The notes: a model not told the origin generated them from the sequence alone. A stretch of DNA of 36,774 nucleotides from a virus (IMGVR_UViG_2778261162_000005); one strand, 5' to 3'; counted from the first letter of the stretch, positions 3,162 to 12,935 are shown. A program made the numbers and translations.

Positions 3162-3198
3162 AAAAAAAGCACGGTAAGGGGTCTACCGTGCTTTTATA
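3162..3198 (-). terminator. Rho-independent terminator ending the early operon after mor
   Basis: Read on the minus strand: GCACGGTA-loop-TACCGTGC followed by TTTTTTTATG; plus-strand side has TTTTAT as well. Confidence 0.6.
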
Positions 3199-3237
3199 CA
3201 ATAAGGAGATTTTTGAAAGGACTTTAACAAGCAGGAA

Positions 3238-3636
3238 TTATCTGGATTTGTTAACGTCTTTCGTCTCCTCTGGCAGATCTTCATCAAACAACCTGCCCTG
3301 CATCCGATCCAGTTCTTCTTTTCTGACCCGCTTAACCACGCTGTAGACCCACTGAAGCGAAACACCAAACTTGCGGGCCAGTTCGTGGTGGTTGCGTCCG
3401 TTAAACTCCCTGAAGATTTCCCGGTCGCGCTGACTGACCTTCCATACCATGCCCATCGGGAAATAAACGTTTTGCCCGCCCCAGACCTGCATCATTCGGT
3501 TCGCGACGGCCTGACCAATCTGGTCGGCAATTGCGGGCTCAATATCAATAATCTCGCGAACGGTCTCAGAGGTATGCTGTGCCAGCTCCACCAGGAGTTC
3601 CGGCCCTTTACTTCGAAACTGATTCAGGTCGCTCAT
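3238..3636 (-). CDS. mor: Mor/C-family transcriptional activator
   Basis: 132 aa; block QNVYFPMG...RDREIFREFNGRNHHELARKFGVSLQWVYSVVKR matches the recalled Mor pattern (VYIP.G, FNGRN, ELA..YGVS, VY..I.R). Confidence 0.7.
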   Translation of the reverse strand: MSDLNQFRSKGPELLVELAQHTSETVREIIDIEPAIADQIGQAVANRMMQVWGGQNVYFPMGMVWKVSQRDREIFREFNGRNHHELARKFGVSLQWVYSVVKRVRKEELDRMQGRLFDEDLPEETKDVNKSR

Positions 3637-4060
3637 GTTTTACTCCCGCAGCTCTGTGCTGCCACTTCTTCAGTTTCTCAATAACACTGCTTGCCTGTTC
3701 AGTATTGAGCCAGCGCAGGGCGCTGATGCCCGTTTCCCGCTTGATCCACCGCGCTAATGCATTTTCTGAACGGTCACGAACAATGCCGGCAGCAGCCATT
3801 TCAAGCCATAGCGCACGGATTTTCCTGGACTGCGGATGGTTATCCAGCGGTAAACCGGAGCTGGCTTTTCCGGCAGGCTTAACGCGAAAGCCTTTCCTTT
3901 TCATGGATTCCAGCACGCAGTTTAGTTGTGTGGTATCCATTCCTTTGGTTGAGGCTTTACCGGTCAGCCCCTGTAACATCTGGCGGTAGGTGTCTTCATC
4001 CATACCCAGTTCATTACGGGCAATATGAATGAGCTGGATAAGACGTTGTTTAGTCATCAT
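3608..4060 (-). CDS. gemA: GemA-like protein (Mu gp16 / DUF1018 family)
   Basis: Start at ATG 4060 (MMTKQRL...) with AGGAG 5 nt upstream; LIQLIHIARNELGMDEDTYRQMLQGLTGKAS pattern typical of Mu gp16-like proteins; immediately upstream of mor as in Mu. Confidence 0.6.
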   Translation of the reverse strand: MMTKQRLIQLIHIARNELGMDEDTYRQMLQGLTGKASTKGMDTTQLNCVLESMKRKGFRVKPAGKASSGLPLDNHPQSRKIRALWLEMAAAGIVRDRSENALARWIKRETGISALRWLNTEQASSVIEKLKKWQHRAAGVKHERPESVSK

Positions 4061-4265
4061 CGTTGCTCCTTTTACCTGCGCCACCGATATAATCGACATA
4101 TAAAGGAAGCGCCACAGGCCAGCACAGGAACATCACCGACCAGCTAATCCAGTAGCCGGCACCACTGTAACGTGAATAAAACCCTGAACGGCGGTGCAGT
4201 TCAGCAGTACACCAACCGACAAAACAATACCAGAACAGGGCACATACAACAGATTCAGCAGTCAT
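4050..4265 (-). CDS. Small membrane protein (71 aa), hypothetical
   Basis: ATG 4265 preceded by GGGGGGA; MTAESVVCALFWYCFVGW...; two hydrophobic segments; overlaps neighbours by a few nt (translational coupling). Confidence 0.4.
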   Translation of the reverse strand: MTAESVVCALFWYCFVGWCTAELHRRSGFYSRYSGAGYWISWSVMFLCWPVALPLYVDYIGGAGKRSNDDD

Positions 4266-4485
4266 TCTGAATATCCCCCCAACTGATATGAATATTACGG
4301 GCAGCAATGACAGGGTCGTTATTCCACCATGCACCTGACATGTATTTTTCAACCTGTTCGCGTCCGGCAATAACACCAATTGTGATCCCCGGCCTGACGT
4401 TCTTAAAAAAGGCGCGGGCAAAAAGGTATCTGGCAGATATTCGGCAGGCTTTTAATTTCCGGCTGTTACCTGATAGCGTAATCAT
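4255..4485 (-). CDS. Hypothetical early protein (76 aa)
   Basis: ATG 4485 with GGAGG 5 nt upstream and ATGA overlap with the stop of the upstream gene. Confidence 0.45.
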   Translation of the reverse strand: MITLSGNSRKLKACRISARYLFARAFFKNVRPGITIGVIAGREQVEKYMSGAWWNNDPVIAARNIHISWGDIQNDC

Positions 4486-5165
4486 CTGGCCTCCAGTTTC
4501 TGTTGTTCCTGCCCACTGACCGGGCGGTGCAGTCTGACGTTCTGCCCTTCACGAAACCCCGCATAGCGCGAGGCGTCGCCATTGCGGCTTCTTCCCGGTT
4601 GACGCGCCCTGGTGGTTTGCGTTTGCGGGTATTTATGTTCCAGCCACTGTTGCATCAGTTCACGCTCATCATCGGTCAGGGCAAAGGACTGTATTTTACT
4701 GATAACGGCCAGTACCCAGCCTTCAGCAAACTGGTCTCCACGGCTGGTACGGGTGGCGTTTTTTATTCTTTTGTTCTGTGCGCTGATATACTGCTGACGC
4801 GCCTTTTTCAGCTGGCGGACCAGCACTTCCCAGGTGTACGCAGCCAGTGCCGCTCGTTCCCGGTTACCGTAGAACCCCACAGACGGATGCGTGCCGGGGT
4901 GAATGATGGAGTTAACACCAAATGCCTCGCGGATGATGTTCATCAGGCCCAGCATGTAGCGCGGTGGACGGAGACTGCCTGTCGGCCAGTAATGACTGAT
5001 GGTTTCATCAATATCACTCATAGCAATGTCGGAATGTGTGATGCCGTGAACATCCATCAGTTTACGGGCTCGGCGCAGTGCCAGAGCGGCCTCGTGCGGG
5101 TTGCCGGATGCGGCCAGCGCCAGCAACTTTTTCAGTTTCTCAATGTGTTTATTCTGGTCTGTCAT
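4482..5165 (-). CDS. Hypothetical early protein, DUF2786-like N-terminus
   Basis: Start at ATG 5165 (MTDQNKHIEKLKKLLALAASGNPHEAALALRRARKLM...) with GGAGA upstream; N-terminal motif resembles the DUF2786 family common in prophages (recalled). Confidence 0.45.
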   Translation of the reverse strand: MTDQNKHIEKLKKLLALAASGNPHEAALALRRARKLMDVHGITHSDIAMSDIDETISHYWPTGSLRPPRYMLGLMNIIREAFGVNSIIHPGTHPSVGFYGNRERAALAAYTWEVLVRQLKKARQQYISAQNKRIKNATRTSRGDQFAEGWVLAVISKIQSFALTDDERELMQQWLEHKYPQTQTTRARQPGRSRNGDASRYAGFREGQNVRLHRPVSGQEQQKLEAR

Positions 5166-5377
5166 TGTTCTGTATCTCCGGTATTTTTCTGCCGTTTCCA
5201 TGCCCGGACAGCGTCGGACAGCTCTTTCAGGCTGTATGCTGCTTTAAGCTTTTCCCATAACCACTGTGTTGTTATGTGCATCAGCAGGGCAGCCAGGGCT
5301 GCCCCCGCACTGAGGCATGTCGCCAGGCCAGTAAGAATCAGTATCCATGCGGTGATTTCCCTGAGTATGTCAGCCAT
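5162..5377 (-). CDS. Small membrane protein (71 aa), hypothetical
   Basis: ATG 5377 with GGGAGG upstream; one TM segment (WILILTGLATCLSAGAALAALLM). Confidence 0.45.
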   Translation of the reverse strand: MADILREITAWILILTGLATCLSAGAALAALLMHITTQWLWEKLKAAYSLKELSDAVRAWKRQKNTGDTEQ

Positions 5378-5391
5378 TGAATGCCTCCCGG

Positions 5392-5688
5392 TTACTCGTT
5401 CGTGTAAATCACGCCCAGTCGTGCAGCCAGACGTTCCAGTTTTTTCTGTTTGTGGAAGTCAATCAGCCGGTCCATCCCCTGAAGGCGCAATTGCTCTGTC
5501 ATGATTTCCACGTCTGCCAGCTCTGCCGCGAGGTCGCTTTCGCTGCCCTGTCTGTTCAGATTGCGGGCAGCACTGGCCGCCAGTTCAGCGGCCTCTTCTG
5601 TCAGTTTCAGGGCCTGTGCGTCCGGCCCGAAACGCTGCAGGGCCAGACGGTAGAGGGCGGTGCGGGTGAGTATGGTGTTCCGTGTCAT
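5392..5688 (-). CDS. MazG-like nucleotide pyrophosphohydrolase domain protein
   Basis: 98 aa with EEAAEL (E-E-x-x-E) followed 17 residues later by AELAD (E-x-x-D), the all-alpha NTP-PPase signature. Confidence 0.5.
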   Translation of the reverse strand: MTRNTILTRTALYRLALQRFGPDAQALKLTEEAAELAASAARNLNRQGSESDLAAELADVEIMTEQLRLQGMDRLIDFHKQKKLERLAARLGVIYTNE

Positions 5689-5697
5689 GCCGCGCCC

Positions 5698-5970
5698 TCA
5701 GTGCTTCCGGTCAACAATGATGTGCAGGTCGCCTTCTGCAGTGATTTCCATCCGGTACGGCACCTCGTGCTCTGCCGCGTGGGTGAGTGTGTTCACTAGT
5801 ATCTGCAGGGCGGCCTCCTTTCCGTTAGTCGCCACAATGGCCTGCGTGGCCATGCTGATTAACGCCGTCAGGGCGCACATGATATCGGTGAGGTCACGGC
5901 ATTCACACTCGTTGAGATACCGTTCAACAAGGGCGCGGGTGCGCTGATGTGCTTCCTGTGGGGTAATCAT
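5698..5970 (-). CDS. Hypothetical early protein (90 aa)
   Basis: ATG 5970 with GGGAGG upstream; ATGA overlap with the upstream gene stop. Confidence 0.4.
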   Translation of the reverse strand: MITPQEAHQRTRALVERYLNECECRDLTDIMCALTALISMATQAIVATNGKEAALQILVNTLTHAAEHEVPYRMEITAEGDLHIIVDRKH

Positions 5971-6161
5971 TGCGCTTCCTCCCTGTCAGGGCGGGAGAAT
6001 TCCATAACGGGCACATCTGCCGAAAAATGCTGACTGCAGTACGGACAGACCAGGGTGACGCGTACTGCAGGTACGTGGTATTTACCGGACATCACGGCGA
6101 TGGCGCTGTGAAAACGCAGGGCTGTTATATCCCTCTCGCACTGAATACATTTAAATATCAT
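5967..6161 (-). CDS. Small Cys-rich (zinc-ribbon-like) protein
   Basis: 64 aa with CIQC...CPYC pairs; GAGGAGAA upstream of ATG 6161. Confidence 0.45.
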   Translation of the reverse strand: MIFKCIQCERDITALRFHSAIAVMSGKYHVPAVRVTLVCPYCSQHFSADVPVMEFSRPDREEAQ

Positions 6162-6258
6162 AATTTAATTCTCCTCTGTTTCCGGCGTGCAGAAGCCCAC
6201 GGCGCTGACGCCGGAATAAAAAAGAAAATGTTTTTATTAAATAATTAACGTGGTGTGT

Positions 6259-6789
6259 TTACTGCACATCCTGCTCAAAAGGAATTATTGAAAAATCCTC
6301 AATATCACTTTTTATGGTAATGCCGGGAATATTTTTCACGGCCTCTTTTTCATTCAGAATGGCATCTTTATTTATTTCCTCTTTTACACGAATAAAGCGC
6401 TCAAGCCCCAGACGTCTCAGTAGTTCAATAACATTATCCGCTCCACGGATACTGACTGATGGCGGACGGTTTCGCCATTGCACCTCGCCGGTGGTGAGGT
6501 TAGCGAACTTCACCTTCCCGTTGCCGGTCAGTTCATCACGGTGTGCCTCACACCATGTCTGGATACCGGACTGCAGTTCTGACATGCGTTTTTTCAGGCT
6601 CTCGGTGAGCGGGGCATAACGTGCGGTGATATCGCCAATGGCGTCATTCATTTCTGTTTCAGCCCTGACCAGTTCACGTTGTGCGTCACCGAGCAGTCTG
6701 ATGCCCTCAATGACCTCTTCGCGTGTCCCCGGTACCCAGAGTGCCGCTGCGGACTTGATACGTTTTGCCCCTTTTGTACTTTTTGCCAT
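6259..6789 (-). CDS. gam: Host-nuclease inhibitor protein Gam (Mu Gam family)
   Basis: 176 aa; MAKSTKGAKRIKSAAALWVP...RPPSVSIRG...GITIKSDIEDFSIIPFEQ closely parallels Mu Gam as recalled. Confidence 0.85.
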   Translation of the reverse strand: MAKSTKGAKRIKSAAALWVPGTREEVIEGIRLLGDAQRELVRAETEMNDAIGDITARYAPLTESLKKRMSELQSGIQTWCEAHRDELTGNGKVKFANLTTGEVQWRNRPPSVSIRGADNVIELLRRLGLERFIRVKEEINKDAILNEKEAVKNIPGITIKSDIEDFSIIPFEQDVQ

Positions 6790-6816
6790 ATTTTATGATT
6801 TCTCCGGTTGTGCTGA

Positions 6817-7086
6817 TTACCACAAAGATTCCGGCCACACGACGCGACAGCCGTGCAGTTCGAAAACGCCCTGACGGAAATGTCCCCTGTGGTCATGACC
6901 GGTATACAGATAACTGGCTTTCCCCTGTTCAAGCATGCGCATGCAATGCGCACTCCGGGAAACGCGGATGACAGGTTTATTGCCCCTGATGGTGATGCTT
7001 TGTACATCCGTGTTCGTTGCCATAAGCGCCATAATGGCTGACTGCACTTTGCTGATTTGCTGGTTGATACCTGTGATGGATTTCAT
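6817..7086 (-). CDS. Hypothetical early protein (89 aa), same position as Mu kil
   Basis: ORF directly downstream of the B-like gene; no recognisable motif; positional analogy only. Confidence 0.35.
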   Translation of the reverse strand: MKSITGINQQISKVQSAIMALMATNTDVQSITIRGNKPVIRVSRSAHCMRMLEQGKASYLYTGHDHRGHFRQGVFELHGCRVVWPESLW

Positions 7087-7088
7087 TA

Positions 7089-8255
7089 TTAAACCCCTTT
7101 GACAACGTCAGCGTTGACCTGTGGAACCCCGATTTCAGCGGCCAGATTCATGGCGGCTATCACCAGGTTACTGACGGCCAGCGGATACAGCAGGCTGACC
7201 CTGTTTTTACGATGACTTCCCGGATTGCTCAGGCGGGCACGTATGGCATCCACTGCGCCGGCGTCCATAATGTCCGTCAGTTGTTTACCGGCCCGTTGCA
7301 GTTTGAACGTCAGAAACTCTTCAAGGTTATTGTCGAGAGGCAGAAGTTCGACCACCTCACAGCGCTGAACGACTTCACGGACTTCCATATTGCGTTCAGA
7401 CAGTTTTGTCGCCAGTTCCGGCTGGCCAATCAGCACGATGGACAGCAGTTTTTTGAAACCGGACTCCAGCTCAAAAAAGCGTTTGAGGTGTTTCAGTGTC
7501 GGAACGGGCAGACTGTGGGCTTCCTCAATCACCAGAACGTGGCTGAACCCCGCCTGGCGGCTGTCTTTCAGGACGCGATGCAGCTGGCGAAAGCGGGCGT
7601 CCTGACTGCGTCTGATGCTTTCCAGTGGTGCGATGGTACTGATAATGGCTTCGGCAATCGCTGCTGCCTTCAGGGTTTTCCCTTTCACATCGTTGTCTTC
7701 CATGGCGATGACGTATGGCTCGATAATAATTACCGGCGCATTCTCGCGGTTGATACGTTCAGTCAGGTCACGGCGCAGCGTGGATTTACCCGCACCGGAC
7801 TCACCGATGACAGCCATAAACCCGCCATGACGGGCTGTCTGGTACAGCGCCTCACGCACGTAGCGAATGTCCGGGGTGGTGAACACATCATCAGAACCCT
7901 GCATGGCTTCGTCGGCGAACGGGTCACGGAAAAGACCAAACGCTTTTTTGGTTGCTGGAAATAACACCTGTTTTTTGAGTAACATATTCTCTTCCTCACT
8001 GAGGCTCGTTTTATCTGTGGTACCCGCTGTACGGGGCGTGGCCGCGCCCTGTACAGCATCAAAACTCTTCGCTGTATCAATCCCCTGACTTTCCAGCCAG
8101 GACGCAAGACGCCGGCGCACTTCTCCGGGGCTGGTGCGGGGCCACGCGTTATGATTCACAATCTGGGCCAGCGTGGCCTCAGAAACATCGACAGCTCTCG
8201 CCACCACCGCCTGTGGAATACGGGCCTCTTTCAGTTGCTGCTTCAGTACCAGCAT
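7089..8255 (-). CDS. Transposition target-DNA activator, MuB-like AAA+ ATPase
   Basis: Start at ATG 8255 (MLVLKQQ...) with AAGGAGG upstream; Walker A GESGAGKST, Walker B-like HVLVIEEAH; immediately downstream of the transposase. Confidence 0.75.
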   Translation of the reverse strand: MLVLKQQLKEARIPQAVVARAVDVSEATLAQIVNHNAWPRTSPGEVRRRLASWLESQGIDTAKSFDAVQGAATPRTAGTTDKTSLSEEENMLLKKQVLFPATKKAFGLFRDPFADEAMQGSDDVFTTPDIRYVREALYQTARHGGFMAVIGESGAGKSTLRRDLTERINRENAPVIIIEPYVIAMEDNDVKGKTLKAAAIAEAIISTIAPLESIRRSQDARFRQLHRVLKDSRQAGFSHVLVIEEAHSLPVPTLKHLKRFFELESGFKKLLSIVLIGQPELATKLSERNMEVREVVQRCEVVELLPLDNNLEEFLTFKLQRAGKQLTDIMDAGAVDAIRARLSNPGSHRKNRVSLLYPLAVSNLVIAAMNLAAEIGVPQVNADVVKGV

Positions 8256-8265
8256 GTTTCCCTCC

Positions 8266-10035
8266 TTAGTTGCCGTTAACAATGCTGATAACGCTGCTGC
8301 GGGCCGGCGTGGTCAGCGTGGCCATGACTTCATCCAGTGCAGCTTCCGGTACGCCGTCCGGGTACTGTGCCGTTAACTGGCGGTAATGTTCCGGCGTCCA
8401 GGTAAGGCCGTTGGCGCTGAACTTCCCGCGCAGGGCTTTCGCGGCCTCCACATGAGTCATGGGACGCTGTTCAGTGCGCGGTCCGCGTACGTCAGAGGCC
8501 TGACCTCGCTTCGGCATATAGGCCGGAAGTGTGGCGTCATCAATATGTTTATACGGGTCAAGCCGCCCGCCGAACGGCAGCGCCTTCGCCTTGCGTGCGG
8601 CAGCTGCATCTGCGGCGTTGTCTGTACCGGTGACCAGCGCTTCGGTTTCTTTTGCCGCCGTCTGTGCCGGTGTTTCCGGCAGGGCTTTGTAACTTTCGCC
8701 AAATACCGCCGCGCCTTCAGCAAAGCCAAACTCGTTCTTTCTGACCTCTTCGACCAGGAAGAACGTCTCGTGGCCGTCCTCACCGGTCAGAACCACCTGT
8801 GCCACATCGCTGCGCCACGGGTTACGGGTAATCATCAGTTTTTCACCGACCAGTACGCCCGGTACCGTTGATACGTCAAATTCAGTGCCCCGGAACGAGA
8901 CACGAAGTTTTGGCGTGACTTTGCGGAGTTCTGGTGCCGCCACAGCCAGTTCACGGCATACCTCAACGGAAGGCGCTTTTTTCAGCTGCTCAGCAGTAAT
9001 CTTCAGCCAGATATCCGTGCGGGTTTTACCGTGGCGGCTGTGAACAGCCGTGGCGTTAAAGTGGCTGCGCCATTTCGCGGCCAGCGCGTTGAGTTCTTCC
9101 AGACTGTGAACCGGCCGGAACTTCAGACCCGGCTCCAGCTTGCGTTCGATAATGTCACGCGCCTTTTCCACCTGTCCGGTGGCGCGGGCGTTATGCGGCT
9201 TGTGCGCTATCAGGTCGATGCCCAGTGAGCGACACATGTTTTTCGTCATACCCGCGGTGTTTGCCGAGCCGGGGTCGAGATAGAGTATTTTCGGCACGCC
9301 GTGCAGCACGTCTGCGCCGCCACGCTCCTGCATGGCGTTGATAAGCACAGAACACAGGTTCTCACCGGATTCCGCCCCCGTCACATACTCAACGTAAATC
9401 CAGCCGCTGGCATGGTCGGTAATCTCGTAACTCCACACGCGGTCACTGGCGATACGGGCAAGGTTAGCGGGCTTGTTCTTGTAGAACTTCGCGCTGTCCA
9501 TCACCTGCAGCCCTTTATGTCCATTGCTCAGGTAGTAAAGCGTGCAGAGTGAGGCGTCAATCTGCCAGACATGATTGGGATGCAGACTGGCCACTTCGGT
9601 ATGTGGTGCAGGGGCATCCAGTTGTTCCGGGTGCAGGCCATAGTTACGCAGGGCACGGCTGATGGCATCTTCAGACAACGGGAAAAACTCACCGGTGGTT
9701 TCATCTGTTCTGCCTGCGGTGATAAAGCCGTTAGCCCGCAGGGTTTCCACTGCATCTGCGATGGAATAGAGACGCTTACCGTTCTTGCGGGTGGCCTCAC
9801 GCAGTGTGGCAGATATCAGCGCGGCTTCGTCGCGGGTCAGGGCGCTGCGCCCGGCATCGGCGCGTTTTTTGCGTTTATCAGTCACAGAGACCTCCTTCAG
9901 CCTGCGCAGCAGAGTGGCGCGGGACATGCCAAGTTCAGCACAGGCAGCGTCGTATACTGCACCGCGTTTACCATGCCCCGCGTCACGTGCCGCGCGGGCG
10001 ACATAAACCAGTCGTTCAGTCAGGGCAGCATTCAT
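8266..10035 (-). CDS. DDE transposase (Mu A-like, rve integrase core)
   Basis: 589 aa; N-terminal HTH region; catalytic-core candidates HVWQIDAS, YLDPGSANT and GQVEKA (D, D, E); GGAGG upstream of ATG 10035. Confidence 0.8.
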   Translation of the reverse strand: MNAALTERLVYVARAARDAGHGKRGAVYDAACAELGMSRATLLRRLKEVSVTDKRKKRADAGRSALTRDEAALISATLREATRKNGKRLYSIADAVETLRANGFITAGRTDETTGEFFPLSEDAISRALRNYGLHPEQLDAPAPHTEVASLHPNHVWQIDASLCTLYYLSNGHKGLQVMDSAKFYKNKPANLARIASDRVWSYEITDHASGWIYVEYVTGAESGENLCSVLINAMQERGGADVLHGVPKILYLDPGSANTAGMTKNMCRSLGIDLIAHKPHNARATGQVEKARDIIERKLEPGLKFRPVHSLEELNALAAKWRSHFNATAVHSRHGKTRTDIWLKITAEQLKKAPSVEVCRELAVAAPELRKVTPKLRVSFRGTEFDVSTVPGVLVGEKLMITRNPWRSDVAQVVLTGEDGHETFFLVEEVRKNEFGFAEGAAVFGESYKALPETPAQTAAKETEALVTGTDNAADAAAARKAKALPFGGRLDPYKHIDDATLPAYMPKRGQASDVRGPRTEQRPMTHVEAAKALRGKFSANGLTWTPEHYRQLTAQYPDGVPEAALDEVMATLTTPARSSVISIVNGN

Positions 10036-10038
10036 TGG

Positions 10039-10950
10039 TTATGCCTCCAGCCCGTTAATCTGTGGCGTCGGCTCAGTCAGCCATGAAGGCGCGACATCGC
10101 CTGTTGGCTCGTCCGGCAGGTCAAATGTGGAGCGCAGGCTACGCGCTGTGCTTTCCAGTTGACAGACCAGGCCTGCCATGAAGTCTCTGGGGGTATCAAT
10201 CATGTTTTCAGCACAATATGCGCACAGTGTCTCAAAAGCGCTGGACAGTCGAACGGCGATGGCAGATTCCGCCTCAACCGCTAATGCTGTCACTTCCGCC
10301 CGCAGCTTCTTAACCTCCTCATCAGGCTCAGGCGGCTGAATACGGGATTTCTTCTCCAGTCTGGTGGAGAGTGAGTCTATTTTTTCATTTTTGTCGGCGA
10401 GTACGCGCTGTTGTGCTGCGTTGGTTTCGCGCGCTTCGCGCAGGGCCTGACGCAATTCACGTACTGACATGCGATCAACATCGTCAAGCGTCAGTCCTGC
10501 GACTGTGCCGCCGTCGGCCAGTTCAGCAAGGTCGTCGTCATCTTCAGCAACAAGTTCAAATAATTTTGCCTTACCTAAAAGCGACAACGTTGTCGCTTTT
10601 GGCTCTAGTTTTGGTGAAAGGTATTTCAAAGATGCTTTCATCATTCGTTGTGCTGCGCGCACATGCAGACCAAGTTGTTCTTCTACAATTCCAACAAAGT
10701 CCCCGTGTGGTTCATTTTCTTTGAGAATAATAAGTCGTTTACCTGCTTCCAGCATGGCCTCAGCGCTCTGTGCCATATAAAACCGAGCCTCATGAACTAT
10801 GCGATCACGCTCATAGGGCTGACCATCGCCAAACTGCTGCATGATCTCCATGCGATGCTGTGTCATGGCGTTCAGACTGACATTGAGATCATCCGACAGC
10901 GGTACCTCGGCGTTCAGTTCAGTGTTAATCGGTGATTTGGTGCGTCCCAT
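10039..10950 (-). CDS. Hypothetical early protein (303 aa), acidic with coiled-coil-like middle
   Basis: AAGGAG upstream of ATG 10950; sits between the Ner-like gene and the transposase, a position empty in Mu. Confidence 0.5.
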   Translation of the reverse strand: MGRTKSPINTELNAEVPLSDDLNVSLNAMTQHRMEIMQQFGDGQPYERDRIVHEARFYMAQSAEAMLEAGKRLIILKENEPHGDFVGIVEEQLGLHVRAAQRMMKASLKYLSPKLEPKATTLSLLGKAKLFELVAEDDDDLAELADGGTVAGLTLDDVDRMSVRELRQALREARETNAAQQRVLADKNEKIDSLSTRLEKKSRIQPPEPDEEVKKLRAEVTALAVEAESAIAVRLSSAFETLCAYCAENMIDTPRDFMAGLVCQLESTARSLRSTFDLPDEPTGDVAPSWLTEPTPQINGLEA

Positions 10951-10960
10951 TTATTACTCC

Positions 10961-11269
10961 TTACAAACGACTACCTGAAATGACACGTTGGTTGATTTCG
11001 TTAATGCGATCCTGTGCACGTGCCATCTCGTTACTGTGGGCCATAGCGATCTGCAGTAACTGGATGCCCGGCGCGAAACGCCCGTTTTCCAGTTTCAGGG
11101 CCAACCCTTCTTCAATGAGGGTGTTGAGTGCCCGGTTGATGTTTGCCGGTGACTCGTGCAGTGCTGCCGCCAGTTCACCGTTGGAAATACCGTTCAGGGC
11201 ATGACCGCGCAGCGCTTTGAGTACCCGGAGGATGCGACTGCCGGAGCTTGAAACATTCGTCTTACTCAT
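10961..11269 (-). CDS. Winged-helix DNA-binding protein (IclR/MarR-like HTH)
   Basis: Start at ATG 11269 with AGAGG 8 nt upstream; ILRVLKALRGHALNGISNGELAAALHESPANINRALNTLIEEGLA resembles an IclR-type N-terminal HTH. Confidence 0.45.
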   Translation of the reverse strand: MSKTNVSSSGSRILRVLKALRGHALNGISNGELAAALHESPANINRALNTLIEEGLALKLENGRFAPGIQLLQIAMAHSNEMARAQDRINEINQRVISGSRL

Positions 11270-11321
11270 CTGCATACCTCTTTTGCGATATGTGATAACC
11301 TTTTACAAAGACTCAAAATCT

Positions 11322-11510
11322 TCAGGCTGCCTGAGCTGTTGATTTCAGCCCCAACTTCACGGCGATTTCATGGGATTTACCGTAACGGGCTTTGGTCTGC
11401 CCATTGAGAACGCGGTATACCTCATTGCGGTTGTAGCCGTTTTCTTCTGCCCAGCGGGTGAAAGTGATCCCGCGCTGGCGGAAGAGAGCTTTGACTTGTT
11501 CTGCAGTCAT
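11322..11510 (-). CDS. Ner/Cro-like small DNA-binding protein, first gene of the early operon
   Basis: 62 aa; AAGGAGA 6 nt upstream; divergent from the repressor gene, the position Ner occupies in Mu. Confidence 0.5.
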   Translation of the reverse strand: MTAEQVKALFRQRGITFTRWAEENGYNRNEVYRVLNGQTKARYGKSHEIAVKLGLKSTAQAA

Positions 11511-11610
11511 CGTTGTCTCCTTTGTTGATGCAATGATGTTTGCCTTATGTGTGATAGATTATGGTGCAGATTATCTCACCAGTCAACTTAAAGAGTGCAG
11601 AAAAACTCAC
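11511..11610. promoter_or_regulatory. Divergent early/repressor promoter-operator region
   Basis: 100-bp gap between divergent starts; contains direct repeats AGATTAT (x2) within TGATAGATTATGGTGCAGATTATCTCA. Confidence 0.45.
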
Positions 11611-11949
11611 ATGATCGGGTTACGTATTAAAGAAGAAAGAGAGCGTCTATCTCTTACACAGCAAGGGTTGGCTGATGCTATAGGTGTGGCAAAGAGAACT
11701 TTCATTGATTGGGAAAAAGATCGCACTTCTCCTACTGCAGTGCAGTTATCTGCACTATCAGAAATCGGTGTAGATATTTTGTATGTAGTTACTGGGGTGC
11801 GGAGTCAGCCTGTTGTTGCACCTTATGTGTCACAAGAAAAGAAAGAGTTAATGGATGCATTCGACGAAATGAGCCCCGAACAACGGAGGGCAATTCTTGA
11901 GGTCGGCAAAGTCTTCATTCAACCCAAACCAAGCAAACTCGCAGGCTGA
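11611..11949 (+). CDS. XRE-family HTH repressor (c-like)
   Basis: MIGLRIKEERERLSLTQQGLADAIGVAKRTFIDWEKDRTSP is a typical XRE HTH; divergent from the early operon. Confidence 0.6.
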   Translation: MIGLRIKEERERLSLTQQGLADAIGVAKRTFIDWEKDRTSPTAVQLSALSEIGVDILYVVTGVRSQPVVAPYVSQEKKELMDAFDEMSPEQRRAILEVGKVFIQPKPSKLAG

Positions 11950-12035: not shown

Positions 12036-12065
12036 CCGGAAAGCATTGTGCTTTCCGGTTTTGTT
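12036..12065 (+). terminator. Rho-independent terminator after the repressor gene
   Basis: CCGGAAAG-CATTGTG-CTTTCCGG followed by TTTTGTT, between convergent repressor and Dam genes. Confidence 0.55.
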
Positions 12066-12829
12066 CAGAAGTTGCAGATTACCAGTTCACGGCGTGGCGT
12101 GGGTTTCCCCGCCAGACTGTAGTTGATATTCACCGTCTGTATGTTCAGTTCAGTGAACACCCGACGCATCTGCGGAATGTCATTCACCGAGATAATCATC
12201 TTTCCTCTGATGCACCGTGCCAGTTCTGCGAGTAGTGTGTAGTTCTCTTCAGGAAAATCCACACCATAGCCTTCCGTCCCCAGATAGGGCGGATCACAGT
12301 AGAACAGCGTGTGCGGACGGTCATAACGCTTAATGCACTGGTGCCAGTCCATGTGTTCTATCACCGTTCTGGAAAGCCGCAGGTGTGCCGCTGACAGTTC
12401 TTCTTCAATCCGTAGCAGGTTGAAGCGTGGCGGGGAGGTGGTGGAGGTGCCGAAGCTGTGCTCTGCCACCTTGCCCCCAAACGCCTGCTTCTGGAGGTAG
12501 TAGAACCGTGCCGCACGCTGGATATCCGTCAGTGTTTCTTCCGGGGTGATCTGCAGCCATTTGTAGATCTGCCGGCTAACCAGCGCCCATTTGAATTGGC
12601 GGACAAATTCTTCCAGATGATGCTTTACTACCCGATACAGATTTACCAGTTCACCGTTGATATCGTTAATGACTTCGATCTTGCTGGGAGTCTTGAGAAA
12701 ATAAAGTGCTGCTGCGCCGCAGAATGGCTCCACATAGCAGGTATGGAGTGGGAACTGAGGCAGAATGTGTTTGGCCAGACGACGTTTTCCCCCAATCCAG
12801 GGGACGATGGGTAAAGATTGTTCTTTCAT
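12065..12829 (-). CDS. DNA N6-adenine methyltransferase, Dam-like (D12 class)
   Basis: Start at ATG 12829 (MKEQSLPIVPWIGGKRRL...); FCGAAAL AdoMet motif and DPPY catalytic motif. Confidence 0.8.
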   Translation of the reverse strand: MKEQSLPIVPWIGGKRRLAKHILPQFPLHTCYVEPFCGAAALYFLKTPSKIEVINDINGELVNLYRVVKHHLEEFVRQFKWALVSRQIYKWLQITPEETLTDIQRAARFYYLQKQAFGGKVAEHSFGTSTTSPPRFNLLRIEEELSAAHLRLSRTVIEHMDWHQCIKRYDRPHTLFYCDPPYLGTEGYGVDFPEENYTLLAELARCIRGKMIISVNDIPQMRRVFTELNIQTVNINYSLAGKPTPRRELVICNF

Positions 12830-12935
12830 TATCTGTAAGCCTTTTTCATTAGATGAAAATGCGATAGGCTTCCCTTGTTCTCGAGAACGGAAGAGCCTCG
12901 GTTGACTCACAGCTCATACCTGTAAGTTGATGACT
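12786..12935. repeat. Direct repeat copy 1 (Dam 5' end plus upstream region)
   Basis: Aligns by hand with 13419-13565; shared blocks CCAATCCA.GG.ACGATGGGTAA, TTTCAT.ATCTGTAA and CCTCGGT.G.CTCACAG..CAT.CCTGT. Confidence 0.6.

Follow-up and report, generated by a model that had tools for sequence, protein, structure and literature searches.

A small MazG-like gene in the early operon of a BcepMu-like prophage: a predicted divergent all-alpha NTP pyrophosphohydrolase

Introduction

Does the small gene that lies among the early genes of a Mu-type prophage encode a MazG-like NTP pyrophosphohydrolase, and what might such an enzyme do for the phage? The question is raised by a locus at positions 5392-5688 of a viral sequence (IMGVR_UViG_2778261162_000005), which we analysed as one stretch of 36,774 nucleotides, hereafter called the window. 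A preliminary description of this locus had proposed a 98-aa protein with the EExxE...ExxD signature of all-alpha NTP pyrophosphatases, placed it inside an early operon, and attached to it a possible counter-defence or host-takeover function. MazG-like genes are common phage accessory genes for which roles have been proposed before, and one more of them will not surprise a phage specialist. The superfamily in question, the all-alpha NTP pyrophosphohydrolases, was reportedly defined by Moroz et al. in 2005 as uniting MazG, HisE and dimeric dUTPase.

The prophage and its early operon

The window is a BcepMu-like transposable prophage, and across positions 4400-6900 it shares 96.3% identity with Escherichia phage PhiKM, of the genus Bcepmuvirus. 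The prophage is inserted in the host gene kdpA: the ORF at 780-2132 encodes a shortened KdpA, cut off at position 394 of the 548 in the profile, and homology with the intact kdpA of E. coli ends at about 2129. The phage end begins TGATCAGACATGAGATAAATGAAGGGGGATCTGTGAGATAAAT and carries two GAGATAAAT repeats, which are probably transposase-binding sites. The junction between kdpA and phage was absent from all of the 5,426 complete E. coli genomes, which is what random transposition of the Mu type would lead one to expect. A second viral sequence (L013; IMGVR_UViG_2737471845_000031, 35,029 bp) encodes early-operon proteins that match those of the window at 100% identity, and it probably represents the same prophage lineage or source genome.

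Pfam and PHROG assignments, together with promoter-like and terminator-like sites, delimit the early region as follows.

11458-11949, plus strand: repressor-like gene (HTH_3)
3165-11586, minus strand: early/semi-essential operon, including the MazG-like gene
11586 to 11558, minus strand: sigma-70-like site (10/12), in the divergent region facing the HTH_3 repressor-like gene
10961-11275, minus strand: Ner-like HTH protein
10039-10950, minus strand: DUF3102
8266-10035, minus strand: rve transposase A
7089-8282, minus strand: AAA+ B protein
Between B and Gam, minus strand: 89-aa ORF
6259-6789, minus strand: Gam
5967-6161, minus strand: 64-aa zinc-ribbon ORF (CxxC...CxxC), unannotated PHROG family
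5698-5970, minus strand: 90-aa ORF, unannotated PHROG family
5392-5688, minus strand: MazG-like gene, 98-aa ORF with ATG start and TAA stop
5162-5377, minus strand: 71-aa hydrophobic/membrane ORF, unannotated PHROG family
4482-5201, minus strand: DUF2786/DUF7168
Between DUF2786/DUF7168 and GemA, minus strand: small ORFs
3608-4099, minus strand: GemA
3238-3636, minus strand: Mor
3195 to 3165, minus strand: terminator-like hairpin (13 bp and a T-run), just after Mor

The MazG-like gene thus follows the genes for transposase A, B and Gam and precedes those for DUF2786, GemA and Mor, every one of them on the minus strand. Analogy with Mu and BcepMu therefore bears out its placement inside an early operon, and from the same analogy we infer that it is transcribed early. 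The three small conserved ORFs that flank it, encoding the 64-aa zinc-ribbon, 90-aa and 71-aa proteins, travel with it in close relatives. Beyond the operon, a gene for a D12-class N6-adenine DNA methyltransferase (12065-12910, minus strand) separates the repressor-like gene from the late region and runs on the strand opposite to that of the late genes.

The gene and its reading frame

The start of the MazG-like gene is preceded by a ribosome-binding site read from the sequence.

5695-5699, minus strand: GAGGG ribosome-binding site, 6 nt before the ATG of the MazG-like gene

This site overlaps the stop codon (TGA, 5698-5700) that ends the preceding 90-aa gene, an arrangement that suggests translational coupling of the two genes. 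At the other end, the gene for the 71-aa hydrophobic protein begins 14 nt past the stop of the MazG-like gene and is preceded by GGGAGG. Given the overlap of ribosome-binding site and stop codon on one side and the 14-nt gap on the other, the gene is packed into the operon.

Comparisons with the orthologues of PhiKM, of a Proteus prophage and of the metagenomic prophage L010 gave dN/dS values of 0.13-0.26, the comparison with the Dickeya orthologue being saturated at synonymous sites. Of the six frames, the sense frame alone remains open across all four orthologues (PhiKM, Dickeya, Proteus and L010). The MazG-like gene is a real gene under purifying selection, and the 98-aa protein that had been proposed for 5392-5688, for which the preliminary description gave no strand, was correctly called.

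Motif and residue conservation

Three groups of codons carry the residues on which the enzymatic reading of the protein depends.

5584-5598, minus strand: codons for E31-E32-A-A-E35, in predicted helix 2 (residues 22-44); first part of the putative Mg2+ site
5512-5523, minus strand: codons for E56-L-A-D59, in predicted helix 3 (residues 50-68); second part of the putative Mg2+ site
5419-5451, minus strand: codons K80...K83...R86...R90 on predicted helix 4, conserved basic stripe, putatively triphosphate-binding

The EExxE...ExxD signature spans nt 5512-5598, and the protein reads ...LKLT-E31-E32-A-A-E35-LAASAARNLNRQGSESDLAA-E56-L-A-D59-VEIM..., with a spacer of 20 residues between the two motifs. 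The bare pattern arises in 0.2% of shuffles of the MazG-like protein. It is also matched by chance in Gam (6643-6720, minus strand), so the pattern alone is not diagnostic; what makes the signature meaningful is its conservation across 98 relatives.

These relatives, about 30-95% identical to the window protein, make up our alignment A3. Among the acidic residues, E31, E32 and D59 occur in 98/98 sequences, E35 and E56 in 97/98, and E61 in 91/98; E32, E35, E56 and D59 are thus all present in the window protein, conserved in 97-98 of the 98, and located on predicted helices 2 and 3. The basic residues behave similarly, with K83 in 98/98 sequences, R86 in 97/98 and R90 in 85/98, while position 80 is K in 77 and R in 19 (96/98). 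The alignment also defines a set of residues conserved in the family to which the window protein belongs, namely G21, Q25, Q66 and M63.

The Arg46 allele

One position of the window protein departs from this pattern of conservation.

5551-5553, minus strand: codon 46, in the loop between helices 2 and 3; Arg here, near-invariant Gly in relatives

Gly46 is found in 92 of the 98 aligned sequences, and G46R corresponds to a single nucleotide (position 5553) relative to the copies in the nearest complete E. coli genomes. The change was considered as a private inactivating mutation. We rejected 'private' because the exact Arg46 protein occurs on 85 contigs, as a minor allele.

Family assignment by sequence

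PHROG 2245, 'nucleoside triphosphate pyrophosphohydrolase', matched residues 1-97 of the window protein at E=7.3e-34 (118.5 bits). The profile of this PHROG has 218 columns, and the window protein aligns to columns 113-211 only. Three other MazG-like PHROGs gave weak matches.

Searches of the curated collections returned nothing above their cut-offs. The best Pfam match was PRA-PH (PF01503) at 14.6 bits against a cut-off of 21.3, and the best NCBIfam match was HisI PRA-PH (TIGR03188) at 14.9 bits against 42.7. Pfam MazG (PF03819) gave no match to the window protein even at E<=10, the consensus sequences of the family HMMs found no MazG match in Pfam, and an NCBIfam search with all 98 aligned relatives returned just two weak HisI PRA-PH matches. 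Among the 52 distant relatives, 14 match Pfam MazG PF03819 at E<0.01 (2e-4 to 1e-2).

When the protein and alignments A1 and A3 were compared with the PDB by sequence and by profile, nothing significant emerged; MazG entries appeared at E>=0.026, and the top of the results consisted of designed coiled-coils and other helical noise. The sub-significant matches of the family profile comprised BcMazG 5ie9 (E=0.026) and iMazG 2q73 (E=0.045), together with iMazG 2q5z, SSO3215 1vmg and YpjD 2gta. In the alignments with 5ie9 and 2q73, EExxEL pairs with EExxEL and (E)ExxDV with ExxDV.

The family itself is large. An exhaustive profile search recovered 10,179 clusters at E<=1e-3 (50%-identity representatives), mostly of about 90-110 aa, and a second profile search recovered more than 6,000 clusters at 90% identity, nearly all of them unnamed. 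One relative is named "nucleoside triphosphate pyrophosphohydrolase family protein" by NCBI, and several are named "NTP pyrophosphatase (non-canonical NTP hydrolase)" by JGI. Ten longer relatives with extra N- or C-terminal sequence contained no fused Pfam domain above cut-off, so fusions give no hint of function.

Predicted structure

The AlphaFold2 model derived from the 98-sequence alignment (pLDDT 94.1, pTM 0.81) consists of four helices, at residues 9-20, 22-44, 50-68 and 73-90. The EExxE and ExxD motifs lie on helices 2 and 3, the same placement as in all-alpha NTP pyrophosphatases. This model supersedes a first one, built from a 23-sequence alignment (pLDDT 83.6), in which residues 50-91 formed one long helix and which gave poorer matches.

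In a Foldseek search of the PDB, the best 14 matches of the model all belong to the all-alpha NTP pyrophosphatase superfamily. They include DCTPP1 7mu5 (prob 0.98), iMazG 2q5z, BcMazG 5ie9, AF1178 4qgp, the PRA-PH domain of HisN2 (7bgn/7bgm) and YpjD 2gta; S-2L MazZ stands further down the list, and E. coli MazG at rank 37. Each match is individually weak (E 0.07-0.4, TM 0.43-0.52). However, chance would not place one rare superfamily, without a break, at the head of 350,000 chains. Among the predicted viral structures of BFVD, the best matches reach a TM of about 0.8 at E about 1e-4, and most of the top matches are named nucleoside triphosphate pyrophosphohydrolase or NTP-PPase.

From the profile, motif and structure evidence together, we therefore accept the window protein as a member of the superfamily on a divergent branch, a position supported by sequence and model and lying outside Pfam MazG and PRA-PH as these families are delimited. 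The signature that had been described is present in full (E31-E32-x-x-E35, 20 aa, E56-x-x-D59), and a MazG-like fold is predicted, by a four-helix model whose top 14 PDB neighbours come from one superfamily. The family name itself survives in part: it stands at the level of the superfamily, where PHROG, fold and conserved residues agree, but not at the level of the curated Pfam and NCBIfam families, whose cut-offs the protein does not reach. Profile evidence accordingly confirms the protein within PHROG 2245 (E=7e-34) but gives it no membership of Pfam MazG or PRA-PH.

Distribution and genomic context

The MazG-like gene is present in 621 of the 5,426 complete E. coli genomes (about 11%), and in all 621 its product is labelled "hypothetical protein" by PGAP. 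In prophages of Dickeya and Proteus and in metagenomic enterobacterial ones, orthologues with 60-74% identity sit in an equivalent slot, with Gam (or DUF3164) on one side and DUF2786/GemA/Mor on the other. Close homologues were also found in Salmonella, Citrobacter, Enterobacter, Klebsiella phages, Yersinia and Erwinia.

For a wider comparison of context, 80 IMG/VR loci were retrieved. All 23 loci with detectable Mu-like early genes, a set that includes every locus with a relative at least 45% identical, hold the MazG-like gene in that slot (23/23). Relatives that are at most 44% identical are located in other mobile elements, for example a prophage with integrase, repressor and Bro-ANT genes, or elements containing PcfJ and RecU.

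Some orthologues differ in length. Two of them (P0012 and P0031, the latter at 5001-5510 of L010) have 169 aa and share a conserved C-terminal extension of about 70 aa (...ELLEDWCGAVPNSAFIGA...), for which there is no Pfam match on record. In another (P0036, 166 aa), the upstream 64-aa zinc-ribbon ORF is fused to the MazG-like domain and the C-terminus is scrambled; because of the latter, its sequence probably represents a degraded or mis-called gene.

Proposed function and alternative explanations

Sequence and modelled structure make it likely that the product is a small, single-domain, divergent all-alpha NTP pyrophosphohydrolase, encoded by a conserved early-operon accessory gene of BcepMu-like Enterobacterales prophages. 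Such a protein would be made early after induction, from the early promoter, and would assemble as a dimer or tetramer like other small MazG-type enzymes. Residues E32, E35, E56 and D59 would bind Mg2+ with the help of E31 and E61, by analogy with Mtb MazG and C. jejuni dUTPase, and the helix-4 stripe of K80, K83, R86 and R90 would hold the triphosphate, as the analogy with the basic residues of C. jejuni dUTPase suggests. The alpha-beta bond of a nucleoside triphosphate would then be cleaved to give NMP and pyrophosphate. The likeliest job of the enzyme would be to trim or sanitise the (d)NTP pool during replication by transposition, a role that we place first because this activity is seen for most characterised single-domain MazG relatives; on such analogies, an Atd1-like role in alarmone hydrolysis or counter-defence would come second. 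The sequence does not discriminate between substrates, and a counter-defence, host-takeover or nucleotide/alarmone-pool role of the kind named in the preliminary description is speculation.

The second of these roles keeps the fold and the chemistry and changes the substrate to an alarmone or immune-signalling nucleotide such as (p)ppGpp, which would make the protein an early anti-abortive-infection or counter-defence factor; we regard it as rather unlikely. It has a precedent in the phage protein Atd1, a single-domain MazG-like enzyme that hydrolyses (p)ppGpp and blunts TIR-based abortive infection. The position of the gene in the early operon, near other host-manipulating genes such as Gam, would suit such a factor if expression follows position, as would the occurrence of distant relatives in accessory regions of unrelated prophages and mobile elements. 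However, the closest structural neighbours of the model, DCTPP1 and iMazG, are enzymes that we take to be dNTP pyrophosphatases. Cyanophage MazG provides a counter-example, with a preference for dGTP and dCTP and no action on (p)ppGpp (PMC6850273). Also speaking against this role, PADLOC-DB models gave no match at E<=0.01 for the MazG-like protein or its six neighbours, and no defence or anti-defence genes are recognisable beside it.

It is very improbable, in our judgement, that the protein is a catalytically inert four-helix bundle, such as a regulator of transposition or of late genes or a protein-binding adaptor in these processes, and shares with MazG its shape only. Sequence-level homology to characterised enzymes is statistically weak, short helical bundles yield many low-significance structural matches, and the window copy has G46R at a conserved position, all of which would be compatible with inertness. 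However, five acidic and four basic residues, invariant or nearly so in a family of more than 10,000 clusters (50% identity), fall at the exact positions of the MazG metal and phosphate ligands, a coincidence that is hard to explain without catalysis, and all top 14 PDB neighbours are enzymes of one superfamily.

We give practically no credence to the reading in which the functional unit is an overlapping plus-strand ORF (5377-5799, 140 aa) or the region is non-coding: although the antisense frame is open over the whole MazG-like gene in the window and in PhiKM, the segment being GC-rich (59% GC), it contains 2-5 stops in the lower-GC Dickeya, Proteus and L010 orthologues, in all of which the sense frame is open, and against either version stand the dN/dS of the sense frame, the matches of its product to a PHROG at 7e-34 and to more than 10,000 protein clusters, and an Rfam scan of the whole window that returned zero matches. 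The sense-frame dN/dS and the antisense stops in orthologues led us to reject the plus-strand ORF as a true gene; because it is broken in the lower-GC orthologues, it appears to be a by-product of a GC content of about 57-59%. A second long antisense ORF (4503-5504, plus strand, 333 aa) lies opposite the early genes.

Significance

As phage accessory enzymes go, the predicted pyrophosphohydrolase is of a routine kind that has been catalogued before; it comes from a large branch, associated with mobile elements, that has no known biochemically characterised member. Because this branch is so large, is missed by Pfam and NCBIfam and has no such member, one biochemical study would inform thousands of genes. 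For a gene that is carried by about 11% of complete E. coli genomes, re-annotation as encoding a MazG-like NTP pyrophosphohydrolase family protein is reasonable. Furthermore, related transposable phages retain one or another MazG-like enzyme in the early operon, which suggests that lytic development of the Mu type benefits from a controlled nucleotide pool or from the removal of a nucleotide signal.

A bolder reading, which we consider improbable, is that the window protein stands for a very large clade of mini-MazG enzymes outside Pfam (more than 10,000 50%-identity clusters, mostly from prophages and mobile elements), and that its fixed place in the early operon of transposable phages is due to a task specific to the phage and not to house-cleaning. 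If this were true, the job might be, for example, to destroy an alarmone, an immune-signalling nucleotide or a defence-generated nucleotide and so to block abortive infection during induction. The presence of two unrelated MazG-like subfamilies in the same early-operon niche of different Bcepmuvirus phages would then indicate strong convergent selection for this activity in Mu-type replication.

Comparison with known systems

The closest comparison is with the small single-domain MazGs of solved structure, namely iMazG (2q5z/2q73), BcMazG (5ie9), YpjD (2gta), DCTPP1 (7mu5/2a3q) and AF1178 (4qgp); of these entries, 2a3q and 7mu5 are human/mouse DCTPP1, 2gta is B. subtilis YpjD, 5ie9 is a Bacillus protein, 4qgp is archaeal, and 2q5z and 2q73 are the integron-borne iMazG. 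Like them, the window protein is an all-helical domain of about 100 residues, with EExxE on one helix and ExxD on the next. The spacing between the two motifs ranges from 12 to 28 residues in the MazG family, and the 20 residues of the window protein fall inside this range. Unlike them, it belongs to a family with conserved residues of its own (G21, Q25, Q66 and M63), and its identity to the solved proteins is 19-23%.

Of the proteins gathered in PHROG 2245 and named in BFVD (e.g., A0A8S5UYQ2 and A0A2I7RBR4), the window protein is a direct member; the BFVD models match it at a TM of about 0.8 with 29-31% identity, and the names given in both resources are computational annotations. We know of no characterised member, either among these named proteins or in the family of the window protein.

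E. coli MazG belongs to the same superfamily as the window protein and has the same ExxE...ExxD metal tetrad. However, it is a protein of 263 aa with two tandem MazG domains, encoded in the chromosomal relA-mazEF-mazG operon, and its score against the window-family profile is negligible (3.6 bits). Its C-terminal domain, used in a tblastn search of phage records, found 15 records, none of them useful as an Atd1 or bridging phage MazG.

The predicted metal site has its counterparts in E119, E122, E138 and D141 of Mtb MazG and in E46, E49, E74 and D77 of C. jejuni dUTPase, in which basic residues carry out substrate hydrolysis (PMC10014863). With respect to substrates, two phage enzymes mark out opposite cases. 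Degradation of (p)ppGpp had long been ascribed to the MazG of cyanophages, but this enzyme shows neither binding nor hydrolysis of (p)ppGpp and has dGTP and dCTP as its preferred substrates (PMC6850273). In contrast, Atd1 of Pectobacterium phage PcCB7V hydrolyses ppGpp (Km about 50 uM) and not rNTPs, reduces the (p)ppGpp level of the cell, and counters the toxicity of TIR-STING and retron-TIR (bioRxiv 10.1101/2022.06.09.495361). Compared by description, Atd1 resembles the window protein in being phage-encoded, single-domain and MazG-like; a tblastn search of phage records with the window protein gave no PcCB7V match.

The comparison that bears most directly on the genomic setting is with the type Bcepmuvirus itself. 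BcepMu gp06 has been noted as MazG-related (PMC3483164), and it and phiE255 gp37 are MazG-like proteins of the early region. As with the window gene, gp06 is encoded in an early minus-strand operon between the B gene and GemA/Mor. However, gp06 (2668-3105 in L002) has 145 aa, SExxEAxEG...ELAD motifs and conserved W44 and W45, and it belongs to a different subfamily, which comprises more than 7,900 clusters and whose profile matches S-2L MazZ (E=4.6e-4) and DCTPP1 (E=0.014). In hhalign, similarity to the window family was not significant, whether gp06 was entered as a single sequence or as a 40-sequence profile; for the window family (A3) against the gp06 family (A4), P was 0.15, though the ExxE and ExxD motifs were aligned. 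HMM scores across the two families reached at most 12 bits. To judge from these scores, the relationship looks like non-orthologous occupation of the same niche by two subfamilies rather than orthology, and gp06 and the window gene may be a case in which non-orthologous genes have replaced one another in a single early-operon function.
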